IMG/VR virus record: IMGVR_UViG_2681813232_000007
Origin: a virus
Taxonomy: Duplodnaviria; Heunggongvirae; Uroviricota; Caudoviricetes
DNA: 37,702 nucleotides
Direction: 5' to 3' (one strand)
The position numbers and the translations under genes are program-made. Shown here in pieces: positions 3,165 through 37,702 of this stretch (its first letter is position 1; every line of letters starts with the position of its first letter). The notes below the pieces were generated by a model, which was not told the origin of the DNA, made no database searches, and saw nothing but the letters and a program-made list of their open reading frames with translations.

Positions 3165-4265
3165 TCATTCCATTTCGAAATCATCAATCCTCACTTCAAG
3201 CTCCAGACTGGTTGTAAAACCGTTATCGGGGTTGACGGTATGCGTCAGAGTCGTAATGGTCCATTCCGCATCATCTATCGGCTGTTTAAAGCCACTGACT
3301 TTCACTGGCATTTCCGTGTAGAGATCTGCCCGCCCTTCCGCCAGTTGTAGCGAGAATGACGCAACGCCGCGTTGCAGGCGTTCCCACTGCATTTTCGCTG
3401 CCCGTTCGGCGTTACTCCGATTAGCATAGGTGCGATTAAGTACCAGCACGTTTTCATCCGTACCCACCAGATAATCGCCCTGCTTCGTTTCCGGCTCTTT
3501 CTTCTGCTTCTTAGTCCTGCGCTTACGCTTCACCGCGGTGCTTTCTTTCTTCGCGGGTTCGCGGGTATGCAACCAGCTGGCAATTACGCCCGTGTAAGCT
3601 CCGCGATCTGCCAGGGTAAAGCGGTGACTGTCGCCGTCCTTACGTGTGATAGTGATAACCGGTAGTGGTTTACCACTGGCGCTTTTACCCTGCCCCTGTC
3701 GGATGAATAACAGATTGCCATTTTTCACCGACGCAATAGCACCGTACTGGCGCGCCAGCCGCATCAGAAAACTGCCGTCACTCTCATTGGTCTGATCTAT
3801 ATGTTCCACGGGTTTATCTGACAGGTCTTTACCCAATGCCATCTTCAGTTTGTGCCGCGCAGCTATTTCCTTCACCACTTCCCCAACGGTGGTCTTGTGC
3901 CACGACTTTTCACGACGGGTATTCAGTGTTTCACGAAAATCAGCACTTCGCGCCCGGATAGTCAGGCGGTCCGGTGCGCCAGTGTGTTCAATCTCGTCCA
4001 CCGTGAATGCCCCTTTCGGGAAAAGCGGCTGCCCCTTCCAGCCCAGCGCCAGCGTAATGACCGCACCACGGCGCGGCAGCACGATTTTTCCGTCGGCGTC
4101 GTCCAGCTCCAGATCAAGCTGGTCCGCTTCAAAGCCCCGATTGTCCGTCAGCGTCAAACTCATCAGGCGGTTATCCAGCACAGTGGTGATATCCCTGCCC
4201 TCAATACTGATGCTGAATGCGGGAGTTTTGTTGCCTTTGTTAAGCAGTTCAGAGCTGAAATTCAT
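3165..4265 (-). CDS. D: tail protein D (late control gene D family)
   Basis: 366 aa, position between ogr and U as in P2; stop overlaps ogr region, start overlaps U stop. Confidence 0.85.
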   Translation of the reverse strand: MNFSSELLNKGNKTPAFSISIEGRDITTVLDNRLMSLTLTDNRGFEADQLDLELDDADGKIVLPRRGAVITLALGWKGQPLFPKGAFTVDEIEHTGAPDRLTIRARSADFRETLNTRREKSWHKTTVGEVVKEIAARHKLKMALGKDLSDKPVEHIDQTNESDGSFLMRLARQYGAIASVKNGNLLFIRQGQGKSASGKPLPVITITRKDGDSHRFTLADRGAYTGVIASWLHTREPAKKESTAVKRKRRTKKQKKEPETKQGDYLVGTDENVLVLNRTYANRSNAERAAKMQWERLQRGVASFSLQLAEGRADLYTEMPVKVSGFKQPIDDAEWTITTLTHTVNPDNGFTTSLELEVRIDDFEME

Positions 4266-28275: not shown

Positions 28276-28509
28276 TTAATGCAGCCAGCTGTCGTCTTCC
28301 CACACCTTCTGCATAATTTTCATCACTTGTTTTCTTTCTTCGTCCAGTTGCAGTCCGGTTAGTTCCACACCGTTAGAGCTACCTTTGCGAATGCGAATTA
28401 CCGTTTTGGGATACAGGGGGCGCAGATTGCGGTAAAGCTCGGATTCAAGGGCGTCCAGGGTAGACTGGCTAATCTTCTGCTCTTTATCGATCATTATTTC
28501 AATGCGCAT
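28276..28509 (-). CDS. DinI-family protein (C-terminal module of a split Tum-like antirepressor)
   Basis: start set at MRIEIMIDKEQ (ATG at 28509, GAGGTG upstream); 77 aa, alignable by eye to E. coli DinI (MRIEV...WESADDW versus MRIEIM...WEDDSW). Confidence 0.8.
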   Translation of the reverse strand: MRIEIMIDKEQKISQSTLDALESELYRNLRPLYPKTVIRIRKGSSNGVELTGLQLDEERKQVMKIMQKVWEDDSWLH

Positions 28510-28519
28510 AAAAGTCACC

Positions 28520-28708
28520 TCAGCTGATGACATCCATTGAGCGGTTGTATTCGTGGGTTCTGATTTTTGCCATGAGTTCATCAGTCAATTCAGAAACCCA
28601 CTGCAGAGCCAGCCCCTTCTCTTCATCACTACACTCACTAGCCGCTACAAGCTTAAGAAAAAAATCAATGCGCTGGAGCTTCAAAGACTCCAAAAAATAG
28701 TCCTGCAT
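28520..28708 (-). CDS. small protein co-transcribed with the dinI-like gene (possible N-terminal module of a Tum-like antirepressor)
   Basis: start set at MQDYFLES (ATG at 28708, AGGAGG upstream); 62 aa; lies directly downstream of the LexA box. Confidence 0.55.
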   Translation of the reverse strand: MQDYFLESLKLQRIDFFLKLVAASECSDEEKGLALQWVSELTDELMAKIRTHEYNRSMDVIS

Positions 28709-28751
28709 CTTTCCTCCTATGACACCACACGCAATACTGTACGCATAACCA

Positions 28752-28767
28752 CTGTTTATATTTACAG
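28752..28767 (-). promoter_or_regulatory. LexA operator (SOS box) overlapping the promoter of the tum/dinI-like operon
   Basis: CTGT-N8-ACAG: cACTGTTTATATTTACAGta matches the TACTGTATATATATACAGTA consensus at 17/20; minus-strand -35 TTTACA (28788-28793) and -10 TATACT (28766-28771) with 16-nt spacer. Confidence 0.8.
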
Positions 28768-28861
28768 TATATAATAATCTTACTGATGTAAAACGTTTTT
28801 TTACGTTCATCAGCCTGATATGCCTGGTATTATAAAGAGCACGAATTGTTAACCCGCGTAA

Positions 28862-33240: not shown

Positions 33241-33414
33241 TTGGACTTTCTCCGTTTCCTCGTGGTCAATTCAGACAGCAATTCATCTTGTGAATGACAT
33301 GGATGCCAGCGTTTTCCATCCTCACCCGTGATCCAGCCGTGACCGTAGTGCATTGCCGGGCTTTGTTTTACCAGCAGCGATGCAAATGATGGTTCTTTCG
33401 TCAGCATAAACACC

Positions 33415-33924
33415 TCACAGCAAACCGAATGAAGCACCAAGGCCAGTCATGGTATCAACTGCACTCGCCATCGCAGGATTAGCCTGTAAACGGGCTTGCA
33501 ATGAAACAGCAGCCAGCGCCATCAGTCGTGTTACAGAGTTAATGCTGCTGATAGCATCACGACGACCGGCACTAGTTTTTACATCACCAGATACCGCACC
33601 TGCTGCAACACGCCCGATCTCTGCAGTTGCGCTCATGACGTAATGCGGCAGTTTCTCTTTTGCTACCTCATTAATCGGTACACATGGCAGACAATGAATC
33701 TGTGCCAGAAAACCATCTACCAACGTTGAATCTTCAGTCAGATCGGTAAGCAGCCAGATTTCTGGTGCGGTTAATAAATGAGGTTGAGCTGGGTTCAGCT
33801 TGTTCCGCAGAATCTGCACATTCATGCCCGCACGTTCTGCCAGTTGCACCAGATTGTGGCGCAGTGCGAATGCACGACAGGCTTCATCAAAATGTGGATG
33901 TTTGGAAACTTGGTAATCAAACAT
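33415..33924 (-). CDS. cII: CII-like lysogeny establishment activator (186 CII type)
   Basis: start set at [19 protein letters not shown]...; near-identical by recall to phage 186 CII over most of its length, including the HTH region. Confidence 0.85.
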
Positions 33925-33956
33925 GGTCGACACCTCTGATGTATCCCAAAATGGAA

Positions 33957-34178
33957 CTAGTTGAATACAACATTGCAATCAGTAAGTGCATCAACGGTAA
34001 GAGCAGCAAGGTTGATCATTACCTTTTCTCTTTTCTTGTCTTTACGAAGACGATGCCGAGGAATGCGACCATCCGCCAACATATCGTTGATTGTGTCGAT
34101 TGAAAGACCAGTAAGTTCGCTATAACGCTCGATTGTGACGTGTGGCGTATTCAGAGTTATTGAAATGTTAGGGGTCAT
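33957..34178 (-). CDS. apl: Apl/Cox-like excisionase and lytic-switch repressor
   Basis: start set at MTPNISITL (ATG at 34178, AGGAG upstream); 73 aa with HTH; divergent from cI. Confidence 0.7.
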
Positions 34179-34228
34179 GATGCAACATCTCCTATTGGCT
34201 TGTGGTGAGCCTGTAGTAATCGTGACAA

Positions 34229-34244
34229 GTACCCAATTGGGTAC
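34229..34244. promoter_or_regulatory. perfect 16-bp palindrome in the cI/apl switch region, candidate operator
   Basis: GTACCCAATTGGGTAC, 30 bp upstream of the cI start codon. Confidence 0.4.
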
Positions 34245-34273
34245 AAAACTGATACTAGGATCGCAAAAGAGAT

Positions 34274-34870
34274 ATGTCAACATCAAAGTACCCAAGTGAG
34301 ATCAAAATAAATCCCAATAAAGGTGGTAAGGCTGCGATTGAGCGATTAGTCGAAGCCTATGGCTTTACGACACGACAGGCTTTAGCTGATCACTTGGAAG
34401 TATCAAAAAGCACACTAGCGAACAGGTATTTGCGGGATACATTTCCTGCTGACTGGATAATCCAATGTGCTCTTGAAACAGGAACCTCCCTCAAATGGTT
34501 AACTACCGGACAAGGCCTTAAGCAAAGCTCGCTGACAGCAGCTACAGAAGAGCTTGTTAAGTTTCGCCTTGCCGCAGGCAAAATGATTGAAGACGGTTCA
34601 TATGTCTTCGATTCATCATTTCTTCCTGCAAACCTTTCATCACCAATTGTTGTTCAGGATGGACTCGTCACATACATTTGTGATCAAAAATTTTCTGAAG
34701 TACTTGATGGAAACTGGTTAATCAATATCGACGGAACCTATTCCATTCGAAAAATCACAAGGCTTCCTAAAGGAATGATTAAAATTACAACAGCAGAGAA
34801 TAGCTTTGAATGTGCATTTTCTGATATTGAAGTGGTTGCTTGTATAAGAAGTACAATAGTCTCGAATTAA
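34274..34870 (+). CDS. cI: CI immunity repressor (186 CI type)
   Basis: 198 aa; N-terminal HTH and motifs EAYGF, CALETG..L.WL.TG.G shared with 186 CI by recall. Confidence 0.8.
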   Translation: MSTSKYPSEIKINPNKGGKAAIERLVEAYGFTTRQALADHLEVSKSTLANRYLRDTFPADWIIQCALETGTSLKWLTTGQGLKQSSLTAATEELVKFRLAAGKMIEDGSYVFDSSFLPANLSSPIVVQDGLVTYICDQKFSEVLDGNWLINIDGTYSIRKITRLPKGMIKITTAENSFECAFSDIEVVACIRSTIVSN

Positions 34871-34890
34871 TATAGTAAAAGGATTTTAAA

Positions 34891-36567
34891 ATGAATTCAT
34901 TTGCCATCGTTATACTCTTATTAGCATTTCTCGCCCCTGTTCTAGCTGTAATATTATTTAAACAAAGTAAAAAACACAAAGCGGCTATAGATAACCTGAC
35001 AGCTAACAACATAGCCCTTTCTAACCAACTGATTGAAAATCAAGAAAAACTAGCACAGACCGTACGAGAATTATCAGAGCTTGAAGGGCGAGCAGCACCA
35101 TTGTGGCAATACGAAGAATTGCACAGCGCAGTAATGGATGCAGAGAATAAGATAAAAAATGCGGACTCAATAGCCAAGCAAAAAATAGATGAAGCCCAAA
35201 TTAAGGCGGCTAAAACAGTAAACGAAGCAAATTATCAAGCTCAGATGACAATAAGCAACGCTAATAGCGAAGCTATAGCAATCACCAAAGACGCTCGCGA
35301 TGCACGCCTGAAAGCCAAAGAACGTCTTGATAATGCTAATAATAAAGCAAATGAGCTAATCTCAAATGCTAATGACAATGCAGTAAAAATTATTTCTGAT
35401 GCAGAAGAAAGAGCAAAGGAGATTGCTGGTTCAGCATATGAAGCTAAAGAGTTTGCAGAAAAATATGAAGCAGTTGCAAAATCAATGAAAAATAAAATTG
35501 AAGGTTATGGTGATGAATGGATCATCCCTAACCGTAGTGTACTTGATGAGCTGGCAGAAAATTATGAATTTACAGATGCAGGCAAGGAATTACAAAAAGC
35601 CAGAGAGTTAACCAAATCATTAATAAAAACTAATAAAGCTGCTTCGTGTGATTATGTTGAGCAAAACAGGCGTAATACTGCCATAAACTTTGTTTTGGAT
35701 GCCTTCAATGGAAGAGTTGACAGTATTTTATCAAAAGTCAAACACAACAATTTTGGAAAACTTTCCCAAGAAATAAAAGATGCATTTCAACTAGTAAATT
35801 ACAATGGCTCTGCCTTTAGGTCCGCAAAAATAAGTGACATCTATCTTCAGGCAAGACTCAACGAGCTAAAATGGGGTGTAGCAGTTAATGAAATTATGCT
35901 CGAAGAAAAAGAAGAGCAAAGAAGGATTAAAGAACAGCTTCGTGAAGAGGAAAGAGCTCGTAGAGAATATGAAAAAGCGATAAAAGAAGCTGAAAAAGAA
36001 GAAAAAGCTATTCAGCAAGCTATAAATAAAGCAACGAAAGAACTTATGCTTGCAAATGAAGAACAACGCTTAGCTTTAGAGCAAAAAATAGCTGAACTAC
36101 AGTTAAAATATGAAGAAGCTGAAGCTAAAAATCAACGAGCTATTTCTATGGCTCAACAAACCAGATCAGGCCACGTCTATATCATTAGTAATATTGGTTC
36201 ATTTGGCGAAGATGTATATAAAATTGGAATGACACGCCGCCTTGAACCACTTGATCGTGTTCGTGAACTCGGAGATGCTAGTGTTCCTTTTTCGTTCGAT
36301 GTTCATGCGATGATTTATAGTGATGATGCACCATCATTAGAAAACCATCTGCATAAAGTTTTCAACGAAAAGCAGGTCAATAAAATTAACTCACGAAAAG
36401 AGTTTTTTAACGTAAATTTAAAAGAAATCAAATCAGTTATTGAAGACATGAACATCAACGCCCACTGGACAATGTTTGCAGAGGCGAAAGAATATAGAGA
36501 GTCTCTATCTATTGAGCAGGAGCGCAAAGCAGCCACTTCCGCCAACGATGAACTACATGTTGCTTAG
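34891..36567 (+). CDS. membrane-anchored coiled-coil protein with C-terminal GIY-YIG-like (T5orf172-type) domain; candidate anti-phage cargo
   Basis: 558 aa, AT-rich; N-terminal transmembrane helix (FAIVILLLAFLAPVLAVILF), long Lys/Glu/Ala-rich helical region, C-terminal GHVYIISN...YKIGMTRRLEPLDRVREL; inserted between cI and int. Confidence 0.65.
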   Translation: MNSFAIVILLLAFLAPVLAVILFKQSKKHKAAIDNLTANNIALSNQLIENQEKLAQTVRELSELEGRAAPLWQYEELHSAVMDAENKIKNADSIAKQKIDEAQIKAAKTVNEANYQAQMTISNANSEAIAITKDARDARLKAKERLDNANNKANELISNANDNAVKIISDAEERAKEIAGSAYEAKEFAEKYEAVAKSMKNKIEGYGDEWIIPNRSVLDELAENYEFTDAGKELQKARELTKSLIKTNKAASCDYVEQNRRNTAINFVLDAFNGRVDSILSKVKHNNFGKLSQEIKDAFQLVNYNGSAFRSAKISDIYLQARLNELKWGVAVNEIMLEEKEEQRRIKEQLREEERARREYEKAIKEAEKEEKAIQQAINKATKELMLANEEQRLALEQKIAELQLKYEEAEAKNQRAISMAQQTRSGHVYIISNIGSFGEDVYKIGMTRRLEPLDRVRELGDASVPFSFDVHAMIYSDDAPSLENHLHKVFNEKQVNKINSRKEFFNVNLKEIKSVIEDMNINAHWTMFAEAKEYRESLSIEQERKAATSANDELHVA

Positions 36568-36625
36568 CAATGTATGTTTCATAGTAATCACACATTGATT
36601 ACTGGTTACATATACAGTTAAATTT

Positions 36626-36649
36626 AGCCCTCTGATATGAGGGCTTTTT
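36626..36649 (+). terminator. hairpin plus T-tract immediately upstream of int (terminator and/or RBS-sequestering structure)
   Basis: agccctc-tgatat-gagggct (36626-36645) followed by TTTTT, then the int ATG at 36650; the 3' arm GAGGG doubles as the only Shine-Dalgarno-like element for int. Confidence 0.6.
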
Positions 36650-37702
36650 ATGGCAGTACGAAAACTAACCACAGGGAAATGGCTTTGCGAATGTTACCCC
36701 GCCGGACGAAGTGGGCGTCGTGTGCGTAAACAATTCGCTACCAAAGGCGAAGCACTGGCTTTTGAGCGCCACACGATGGAAGAAACCGAAGCAAAGCCCT
36801 GGCTGGGTGAATCAGTGGATCGTCGAACACTGAAAGACGTGGTTGAGCTATGGTTCAAACTACATGGTAAATCTCTGACAGCTGGGCAGCATGTCTATGA
36901 CAAATTGCTGTTGATGGTTGACGCTCTGGGCAATCCTCTTGCAACCGATCTCACCTCTAAAATGTTTGCCCACTATCGAGATAAACGCCTGACAGGCGAG
37001 ATCTACTTCAGCGAGAAATGGAAGAAAGGAGCAAGCCCGGTCACCATTAACCTGGAGCAAAGCTATCTAAGTAGTGTTTTTAGCGAACTATCCCGTCTGG
37101 GCGAATGGTCGTATCCGAACCCACTGGAGAACATGCGAAAATTCACCATCGCAGAAAAAGAGATGGCATGGCTTACCCATGAGCAGATTGTTGAATTGCT
37201 GGCTGATTGCAAACGTCAGGACCCAATTCTGGCACTGGTAGTTAAGATATGCTTAAGCACAGGCGCACGCTGGCGTGAAGCCGTAAATCTTACCCGCTCA
37301 CAGGTGACCAAATACCGAATTACCTTTGTCAGAACGAAGGGGAAGAAAAACAGAAGCATCCCTATCAGTAAAGAGCTTTACGAAGAGATCATGGCGCTTG
37401 ATGGGTTCAATTTCTTCACAGACTGCTATTTTCAATTTTTATCCGTGATGGAAAAAACGTCTATCGTGCTCCCTCGCGGTCAACTCACACACGTTCTGCG
37501 CCATACGTTTGCGGCGCACTTCATGATGTCGGGTGGAAACATTCTGGCCTTACAAAAAATTCTCGGACACCACGATATAAAAATGACTATGCGTTACGCA
37601 CATCTGGCACCGGATCATCTAGAAACGGCGCTCCGTTTCAATCCTCTGGCAACGCTGCCAAGTGGCGACAAAGTGGCGGCAGCGGTTGGCATTACCCCGT
37701 AA
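36650..37702 (+). CDS. int: tyrosine integrase (P2/186 family)
   Basis: 350 aa; catalytic region with HVLRHTFAAHF and MRYAHL (R..H..R..Y); stop codon is the final triplet of the window. Confidence 0.9.
   Translation: MAVRKLTTGKWLCECYPAGRSGRRVRKQFATKGEALAFERHTMEETEAKPWLGESVDRRTLKDVVELWFKLHGKSLTAGQHVYDKLLLMVDALGNPLATDLTSKMFAHYRDKRLTGEIYFSEKWKKGASPVTINLEQSYLSSVFSELSRLGEWSYPNPLENMRKFTIAEKEMAWLTHEQIVELLADCKRQDPILALVVKICLSTGARWREAVNLTRSQVTKYRITFVRTKGKKNRSIPISKELYEEIMALDGFNFFTDCYFQFLSVMEKTSIVLPRGQLTHVLRHTFAAHFMMSGGNILALQKILGHHDIKMTMRYAHLAPDHLETALRFNPLATLPSGDKVAAAVGITP

Follow-up and report, generated by a model that had tools for sequence, protein, structure and literature searches.

P2 and 186 are the textbook models of their family of phages and in both of them the integrase gene, int, is co-transcribed with the immunity repressor gene. 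The promoter pE and the lysogenic operon of 186 are reportedly the subject of work by Neufing et al. in 1996 and by Shearwin and Egan in 2000. For P2, Int itself is said to be an autoregulatory RNA-binding protein, a statement for which the 1994 paper of Yu et al. is cited elsewhere. In the transposon Tn10, fold-back inhibition by IS10 reportedly protects the element against transcription from outside (this is attributed to Davis, Simons and Kleckner in 1985), and IS50 and other insertion sequence (IS) elements behave like IS10 in this respect. Here the region in front of int was analysed in IMG/VR record IMGVR_UViG_2681813232_000007, a stretch of 37,702 nucleotides ('the window' below) representing a P2/186-like (Peduoviridae) prophage; the tested segment is 100% identical to Escherichia phage vB_EcoM-813R9 by BLAST against phage genomes. 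The repressor gene cI, which is the first gene of the lysogenic operon and points towards int, a cargo gene for the anti-phage defence protein PD-Lambda-1, and int all lie on the + strand, and the short region between the cargo gene and int holds a hairpin, promoter-like hexamers and candidate sites for LexA and for the phage regulator CII. Coordinates are collected in Table 1.

Behind the cargo stop codon (TAG, 36565-36567) come, in this order, a CII-type inverted repeat, a -35 hexamer, a LexA box, a -10 hexamer, the 5' arm and loop of the hairpin, its 3' arm with the Shine-Dalgarno (SD) element of int, a T-tract (in the clade of this phage) and the int ATG. The reading that we favour, with somewhat better than even confidence, is that the hairpin lies inside an int promoter, Pint, controlled by LexA and CII, and that it silences int on transcripts arriving from upstream while transcripts from Pint itself are translated. 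Transcripts from pL or pE that run through cI and the PD-Lambda-1 gene would carry both arms, so the hairpin would form; the sole SD would be buried in such read-through RNA and in this clade the hairpin would also act as an intrinsic terminator. The lysogenic operon would then yield no integrase because its transcripts are either terminated or have their SD buried. The mRNA from Pint would have a leader of about 20 nt in which no hairpin is possible; its SD would be free, it would contain no terminator and it would be translated. In a lysogen Pint would be repressed by host LexA, and the SOS response would release it along with the LexA-box operon at 28276-28810. By analogy with pI of lambda, Pint probably also responds to phage CII when lysogeny is being established. 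The hairpin is best read as discriminating between transcripts by their origin, not as a constitutive brake on all int mRNA. What the sequences show directly are the elements, their conservation, the covarying stem and the contrast in energy; the start site, the binding of LexA and CII, the efficiency of termination and the consequence for Int levels are inferred.

A preliminary description of this locus had drawn attention to a 7-bp hairpin with a T-tract and the int ATG right behind it, and this is what is found at 36626-36650. Five of the seven base pairs are G-C, the loop has 6 nt, and T5 and then ATGG follow. The hairpin alone folds at -12.9 kcal/mol (z-score -4.23; 0 of 200 shuffled sequences were equally stable), it is kept when the proposed folding of 36600-36670 is carried out (-18.9 kcal/mol, z-score -2.96), and it is the centroid structure also within a 126-nt read-through RNA. 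The same description took the GAGGG of the 3' arm for the only SD of int, correctly, as no other purine-rich SD-like element is present within 20 nt of the ATG; it lies wholly inside the arm. The structure has at once the form of an intrinsic terminator, with a G+C-rich stem-loop and an immediate U-tract, and the form of an SD-sequestering element, with the SD base-paired in a stable local structure. A search of Rfam gave no family at the gathering score over the hairpin region. A match to RyhB, sub-threshold at 28.5 against 55 bits, was set aside as reflecting only a hairpin followed by a T-run.

The start codon on which these statements depend is well placed. The ATG at 36650 is also called by PGAP in an identical E. 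coli prophage, and the integrase N-terminus M-[A/T/S]-[V/I]-R-K is common to all 70+ relatives and to the integrases of phage 186 and P2; the next in-frame ATG is codon 43. An int start further downstream with an SD of its own, for which the preliminary description had left room, is ruled out by the PGAP call, the starts of the homologues and the conserved N-terminus. The deposited integrase coding sequence of Klebsiella phage 4LV2017 (L001, KY271398) begins 72 nt past the conserved ATG (locus position 3581 versus 3653) and is without the conserved N-terminal 24 residues, probably through a miscalled start codon. This shorter version was considered as evidence for a downstream start and rejected as a mere difference of annotation.

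Conservation was examined in 77 genomic loci with relatives of the integrase (48-100% identity) by comparing the 110 nt before each start. Scoring of 73 loci gave 44 with the module, the window and the named phages being counted, and 29 without. There were 37 distinct tail sequences, and 24 of them were fold-tested. Column-wise covariation on the MAFFT alignment was unusable since the DNA sites align while the arms and loops of the hairpins vary too much in length, and shuffle tests on each sequence and opening energies of the ribosome-binding site (RBS) were used in place of a column-wise statistic.

The two arms of the stem were found to change together. At least 12 unrelated stem sequences occur in the relatives and the SD is always paired; examples are AGCCCTC/GAGGGCT, TGCTCTCC/GGAGGGCA, ACTCTCCTAAA/TTTAGGAGAGT, TAGCCC/GGGCTA, ACCCCCTT/AAGGGGGT, CACATTCTC/GAGAATGTG, CCTCCATT/AATGGAGG and ATACCCCT/AGGGGTAT. 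Far greater stability than in shuffled sequences was seen for 17 of the 24 tails, with z-scores of about -4 to -8, and the excess persists when the SD half is held fixed and the 5' half alone is shuffled. The T-run behaves differently. It is confined to the closest clade, in which Int identity is 85% or more and the run has the length T5-T8, and it is absent in L002/3, L018, L021, L024, L028-L039, L052, L073 and L075; lineages outside the clade, with phage ESSI2_ev040 among them, keep the hairpin without it. The stem in lineages of this kind is joined to the ATG by unrelated bases or directly; at orthologous positions the U-tract is not conserved along with the hairpin. Because the stems vary with the SD remaining paired while the T-tract is found only in the closest clade, the comparison indicates that SD occlusion is the conserved property and that termination is a lineage-specific addition. 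A dual role as terminator and as occluder of the int SD had been proposed. The occlusion stands, the SD being paired across relatives and the RBS costing about 14 kcal/mol to open in read-through RNA against about 5.7 in loci without the module; termination is plausible in the clade with the T-tract and does not hold in general, the T-tract often being missing.

These observations bear on a simpler explanation, that the hairpin is a plain intrinsic terminator of the cI-cargo operon, its overlap with the SD being incidental and int being expressed at a low level from read-through. The window itself lends this some weight, as the hairpin has the canonical form, ranks first among terminator-like sites in 33300-37702 in a consensus scan, has no other terminator beside it from the cargo gene to int, and keeps T5-T8 in the close clade. 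We nevertheless regard it as unlikely. Hairpins that pair with the SD and have no T-tract are found in ev040, L021, L024, L028-L033, L052, L073 and L075, the module and its hairpin are present also where int follows ogr and not cI, and a plain terminator gives no reason why an invariant LexA box, a -35 and a CII-type repeat should be packed directly upstream.

The hairpin had also been tied to the cargo gene, and this part of the preliminary description was not borne out. By BLAST, homology to Klebsiella phage 4LV2017, which has another gene between cI and int, begins at 36568, the first base past the cargo stop. In phages ESSI2_ev040 and ev129, which are without cargo, only 78 nt separate the cI stop from int, and a hairpin is present at the equivalent place. 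Since the similarity to relatives sets in directly behind the cargo stop, whether these have another cargo or none, the hairpin belongs to int, as part of an int-proximal module, and not to the cargo gene, whose own terminator it was also considered to be until the homology start at 36568 ruled this out. In prophages of Rahnella and Pantoea type the same-strand genes before int are D and ogr, not cI, and the module is kept nonetheless; therefore the module travels with int. The loci with int downstream of D and a gene for an Ogr-type zinc finger were L028-L038, L079 (Rahnella) and L032 (Pantoea). A repeat ATGTATG-N13-CATACAA lies about 50 nt before the ogr-like gene (for example 2575-2601 and 2629-2862 in L033).

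The effect of the transcript's origin can be expressed as the cost of opening the RBS (-17 to +4). In the window this is 14.1 kcal/mol in read-through RNA and 4.8 in RNA starting at 36630, which is unstructured (z-score +0.46). The corresponding means are 14.4 and 4.4 kcal/mol, and 5.7 kcal/mol in the 29 int genes without the module. In all hairpin types the 5' arm ends 11-13 nt past the LexA box, and because of this the predicted leader of about 20 nt would never hold the partner of the SD. The SD hairpins are weaker where a dedicated terminator lies just before the CII-type repeat, their mean being -7.1 kcal/mol there and -13.2 kcal/mol elsewhere (p = 0.0014 by a Mann-Whitney test that makes no correction for phylogeny), which fits an insulating role.

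The energy contrast depends on where Pint starts. Hexamers resembling a -10 lie 21-23 nt past the right CII half-site in 186 pE, in the pE of relatives and in all copies of Pint; in 186 pE the -10 is at 21 nt and the promoter feature ends about 35 nt past the half-site. Two estimates, independent of each other, are in agreement: the geometry of pE places the start of Pint at 36630 and the -10 plus 7 nt places it at 36631. A start at about 36630-36631, inside the 5' arm of the hairpin, is predicted from these distances, and it is to be expected inside the hairpin because a terminator about 20 nt past a promoter's own start would be self-defeating. The rival possibility is a start upstream of 36626, such that all int mRNAs carry the hairpin and it serves as a constitutive attenuator of translation, as a 5' stabiliser or as the target of a trans-acting factor, for example in Int autoregulation. 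A TACAGT within the LexA box offers an alternative -10 with a start at about 36625, which would put the whole hairpin into the Pint mRNA. This hexamer was judged an unlikely -10 on spacing: the conserved -35 is only 11-12 nt away, and relative to 186 pE the hexamer is out of register by 4-5 nt. In the clade with the T-tract, moreover, a terminator 20 nt past such a start would abort the promoter's own transcripts, and P2 itself, for which Int autoregulation is reported, is without the module and the hairpin. An upstream start is thus given little credence.

The preliminary description suggested that the hairpin keeps int low in the lysogen. For transcripts from upstream this agrees with the reading favoured here. 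It is incomplete in having overlooked the LexA box, the hexamers and the CII-type site. The LexA box was scored with a position weight matrix (PWM) built from E. coli LexA operators (training scores 12.7-26.8) and is the second best of 37,683 window positions and one of two strong matches in 37.7 kb, the next best score in the window being 8.4. It is a 20-bp palindrome of the type TACTG(TA)5CAGTA with CTG and CAG intact and its score is within the range of known operators. All 44 loci with the module have a box, scoring 13.4-27.0 and ending 27-36 nt before the int ATG; the other 29 scored loci, including 186-type loci with cI abutting int, reach at most 7.2. The box of ev129 is identical in 19 of 20 positions to the tisB operator, which has been used in structural and binding work on LexA (PMC3159453). 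In an alignment of 37 sequences the conserved positions are those of CTG and CAG, the contacts, and of TTGA in the -35. Between a conserved -35 of TTGAC type (TTGACA, TTGACC or TTTACA in relatives) and an AT-rich -10 of the predicted promoter, the box takes up the spacer; this spacer is 17-18 nt long, the -35 ends at position 1-2 of the box and the -10-like hexamer starts at position 19-20. A promoter on the minus strand at the LexA box was considered and dropped, its hexamers being poor on reading the sequence.

The other strong LexA site of the window is a tandem box in front of a minus-strand operon (open reading frames 28520-28810 and 28276-28581) that ends in a DinI-like gene. The first reading frame gave no match in Pfam; it has the position expected of a Tum-type antirepressor. 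The tandem boxes suggest that the phage is SOS-inducible in the manner of 186, and they indicate that it already uses host LexA.

The CII-type repeat in front of Pint is the only N12 match in the window with at most one mismatch. The annotated CII site of phage 186 in GenBank record U32222 is GGATGTTTG-N13-CAAACAT, with the note 'activate pE', and sits at the cII start codon; a perfect copy of this site is present in the window at the equivalent place, with a -10-like hexamer, CAAAAT, 22 nt past it. The general form of the repeat before int is ATGT(A/T)TG-N12/13-CA(A/T)ACAT. The repeat was found in 41 of the 44 module loci, between -77 and -86 relative to the ATG of int, most of these loci also having a perfect pE copy 1-3 kb upstream, and perfect N13 copies before int occur in relatives such as ev040. 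Homologues of CII were detected in the relatives by tblastn. A 7-bp inverted repeat, AGTAATC...GATTACT at 36583-36603, covers both the right CII half-site and the -35. Being present only in the window and in L006, it is probably due to chance.

It may be asked whether these two elements, the one resembling a LexA box and the other a CII site, act as operators at all. They could mark a recombination boundary for the exchange of cargo or be the site of another protein, int then being expressed from read-through damped by the hairpin. The left half-site is the exact edge of the variable cargo region, and the spacing at Pint is N12 compared with N13 in 186 pE. However, the box scores like bona fide E. 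coli operators and the other such site lies before the DinI-like operon, conservation coincides exactly with the contacts CTG/CAG and with TTGA in the -35, and the repeat agrees in form both with the CII site annotated in 186 and with the one at pE of this phage. Such a non-operator role seems to us very improbable.

Table 1. Features of the int module and of related sites and genes in the window.
Feature	Position	Strand	Basis	Remarks
CII-type inverted repeat ATGTATG-N12-CACACAT	36570-36595	+		abuts -35; 3 nt past cargo stop
Putative Pint -35, TTGATT	36595-36600	+	37-sequence alignment	TTGA core (near-)invariant
LexA (SOS) box TACTGGTTACATATACAGTT	36600-36619	.	PWM score 23.6	in promoter spacer
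Putative Pint -10, TAAATT	36619-36624	+		21-23 nt past right CII half-site
Hairpin 5' arm AGCCCTC (anti-SD)	36626-36632	+	sequence, folding	straddles predicted Pint start
Hairpin loop TGATAT	36633-36638	+	sequence, folding	
Hairpin 3' arm GAGGGCT	36639-36645	+	sequence, folding, RBS opening energy	with sole int SD GAGGG, 36639-36643
T5 tract, terminator-like	36645-36649	+	terminator consensus scan	lineage-specific
int, tyrosine integrase, 350 aa	36650-37702	+	Pfam Int_N 3e-32, Phage_integrase 7e-22	
PD-Lambda-1 anti-phage defence protein, 558 aa	34891-36567	+	PADLOC PD-Lambda-1 3e-120; Pfam DUF4041 + T5orf172/MUG113	cargo gene
cI, 186-type immunity repressor	34274-34870	+	Pfam Phage_CI_repr 8e-32, Phage_CI_C 3.5e-27	
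Perfect CII site ATGTTTG-N13-CAAACAT (pE-equivalent)	33898-33924	+		overlaps cII start codon, placed as in 186
cII, 186-type regulator	33415-33924	-	PGAP 'phage regulatory CII family protein' in identical E. coli prophage	open reading frame in window
Tandem LexA boxes	28735-28769	.	PWM	28750-28769 score 24.0; 28735-28754 score 14.3
DinI-like gene	28276-28581	-	Pfam DinI 1.3e-22	

Several points weigh against the proposal of a LexA/CII-controlled Pint with a transcript-selective hairpin. In the window the CII-type site at Pint has a single mismatch, and its spacer falls 1 bp short of that in 186 pE; the spacing together with the mismatch may make it a weaker CII site; CII of 186 was reportedly found by Shearwin and Egan in 2000 to be sensitive to spacing changes of 1 bp. 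The hexamers of the window, TTGATT and TAAATT, agree with the consensus in 8 of 12 positions in total and fall below the threshold of the promoter scan. The TACAGT discussed above is to be counted here too, and a few module loci (L027, L046, L037 and L017) have little or no hairpin. There is also the supply of Int for lysogenisation. Should both LexA and the hairpin be in force in a cell that is infected but not induced, then CII must overcome LexA, or the control must be leaky.

The locus can now be set beside the systems known to resemble it. The candidate CII site at Pint is like that of 186 pE, apart from the mismatch and the shorter spacer in the window, in having half-sites of 7 bp some two helical turns apart; the distance of 21-23 nt from the right half-site to the -10 is shared, and the CI, CII and Int proteins are of the same families. 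In 186, by contrast, the sole annotated CII site is that at pE, the start of int overlaps the stop of cI (TAATG), and int is without a promoter of its own, a LexA box or a hairpin; cI and int overlap in 186-type loci in general. P2 is alike in having int downstream of the immunity repressor gene and reportedly kept low post-transcriptionally (Yu, Barreiro and Haggard-Ljungquist 1994), and differs in that its C-int spacer has no LexA box, CII repeat or SD-pairing hairpin of this type. The module is found neither in P2 nor in 186. Lambda resembles the proposed scheme in that int has a CII-responsive promoter of its own, pI, adjoining the gene, and RNA structure ties expression to the promoter of origin; in lambda the 3' end is where transcripts are told apart, by retroregulation at the RNase III site sib, and CII is unrelated, whereas here SD occlusion at the 5' end, a CII of 186 type and direct control by LexA are predicted. 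In its logic the scheme would resemble that of IS10, where transcripts from outside carry a partner, located upstream of the element's own start, that pairs with the RBS of the recombinase gene and prevents translation, and transcripts from the element's own promoter lack this 5' partner and are translated. Here the recombinase is a phage tyrosine integrase, the 'outside' is the phage's own cI/cargo operon, the hairpin is terminator-like in this clade, the promoter contains LexA and CII sites, and the start site is a predicted one.

Integron integrase promoters are repressed by LexA (Guerin et al. 2009; PMC3108266), and a LexA site before the integrase of a Firmicutes phage bound LexA in an electrophoretic mobility shift assay, with a possible extension to phage integrases being discussed (PMC3998124). 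The likeness would lie in an SOS box over the promoter of a tyrosine recombinase, by which recombination is linked to DNA damage. The present case differs in being that of a temperate P2/186-like phage and in that the box is accompanied by a CII-type site and by a hairpin that would silence read-through. A comparative paper on the regulatory genes found in P2-like phages and on their integrases makes no mention of LexA, SOS, stem-loops or terminators (PMC3448106). In the literature searched no LexA box or separate int promoter was found reported for P2-like phages, though key older papers (Yu et al. 1994, Murchland et al. 2014) were outside the reach of the search and the absence is unproven. 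The hairpin by itself is ordinary; it is the combination of CII site, LexA box and fold-back hairpin before int that is widespread and, it appears, undescribed.

Among 5426 complete E. coli genomes, 1095 (about 20%) contain a match to the segment 36540-36800, and in 1053 of these at least 80% of it is covered, a part that takes in the -35, LexA box and hairpin. The lineage with the module was also found in Klebsiella, Enterobacter, Citrobacter, Serratia, Yersinia, Rahnella, Pantoea and others. Nearly all the module loci that run from cI to int have 0.3-2.6 kb of varied cargo in the gap. The genes called there by PGAP in E. coli relatives include DUF4041, a SNIPE-associated domain and an ATP-dependent endonuclease. 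Small hypothetical proteins are also encoded in the gap in relatives. Because the contents of the gap vary among relatives and it is empty only in ESSI2_ev040 and ev129, it looks like a hotspot for defence and other cargo.

A broader proposal is held more tentatively, at a little under even confidence. A large P2/186-like lineage would have uncoupled int from the cI operon by means of a three-input module of about 80 bp, in which a promoter activated by CII and repressed by LexA starts within a hairpin that terminates, or silences at translation, all transcripts arriving from upstream. Int would be made only on signals from CII (for establishment) or SOS (for excision), and the cI-int junction would have become safe for lysogen-expressed defence cargo such as PD-Lambda-1. 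If the favoured reading is right then a very common sister lineage of the textbook phages controls int via host LexA, via CII at a second promoter and via a hairpin that chooses the translatable transcripts. The source of integrase at induction, a time at which the lysogenic promoter is off, would be accounted for, and so would the low level at which spontaneous Int expression in lysogens can remain. The reading would also explain the cI-int gap as a hotspot for anti-phage defence, the cargo being expressed with cI without int being dragged along. The module would then be a compact natural part for promoter-selective translation.

A complete module is also present in C43(DE3), a derivative of BL21(DE3), within a remnant P2-like prophage (L083, NZ_CP011938 at about 872.9 kb, locus positions 3183-3263). 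It comprises a perfect CII-type repeat, TTGACA, the LexA box, an SD hairpin of 12 bp and T6. The int gene of this prophage is intact, but cII and the replication genes are pseudogenes. The hairpins of L001, L004, L012, L016 and L083 are of a type AAAATGC...GCATTTT in which the T-tract is base-paired to the run of A residues in the -10 region, giving a 12-bp stem between A- and T-runs that resembles a bidirectional terminator.

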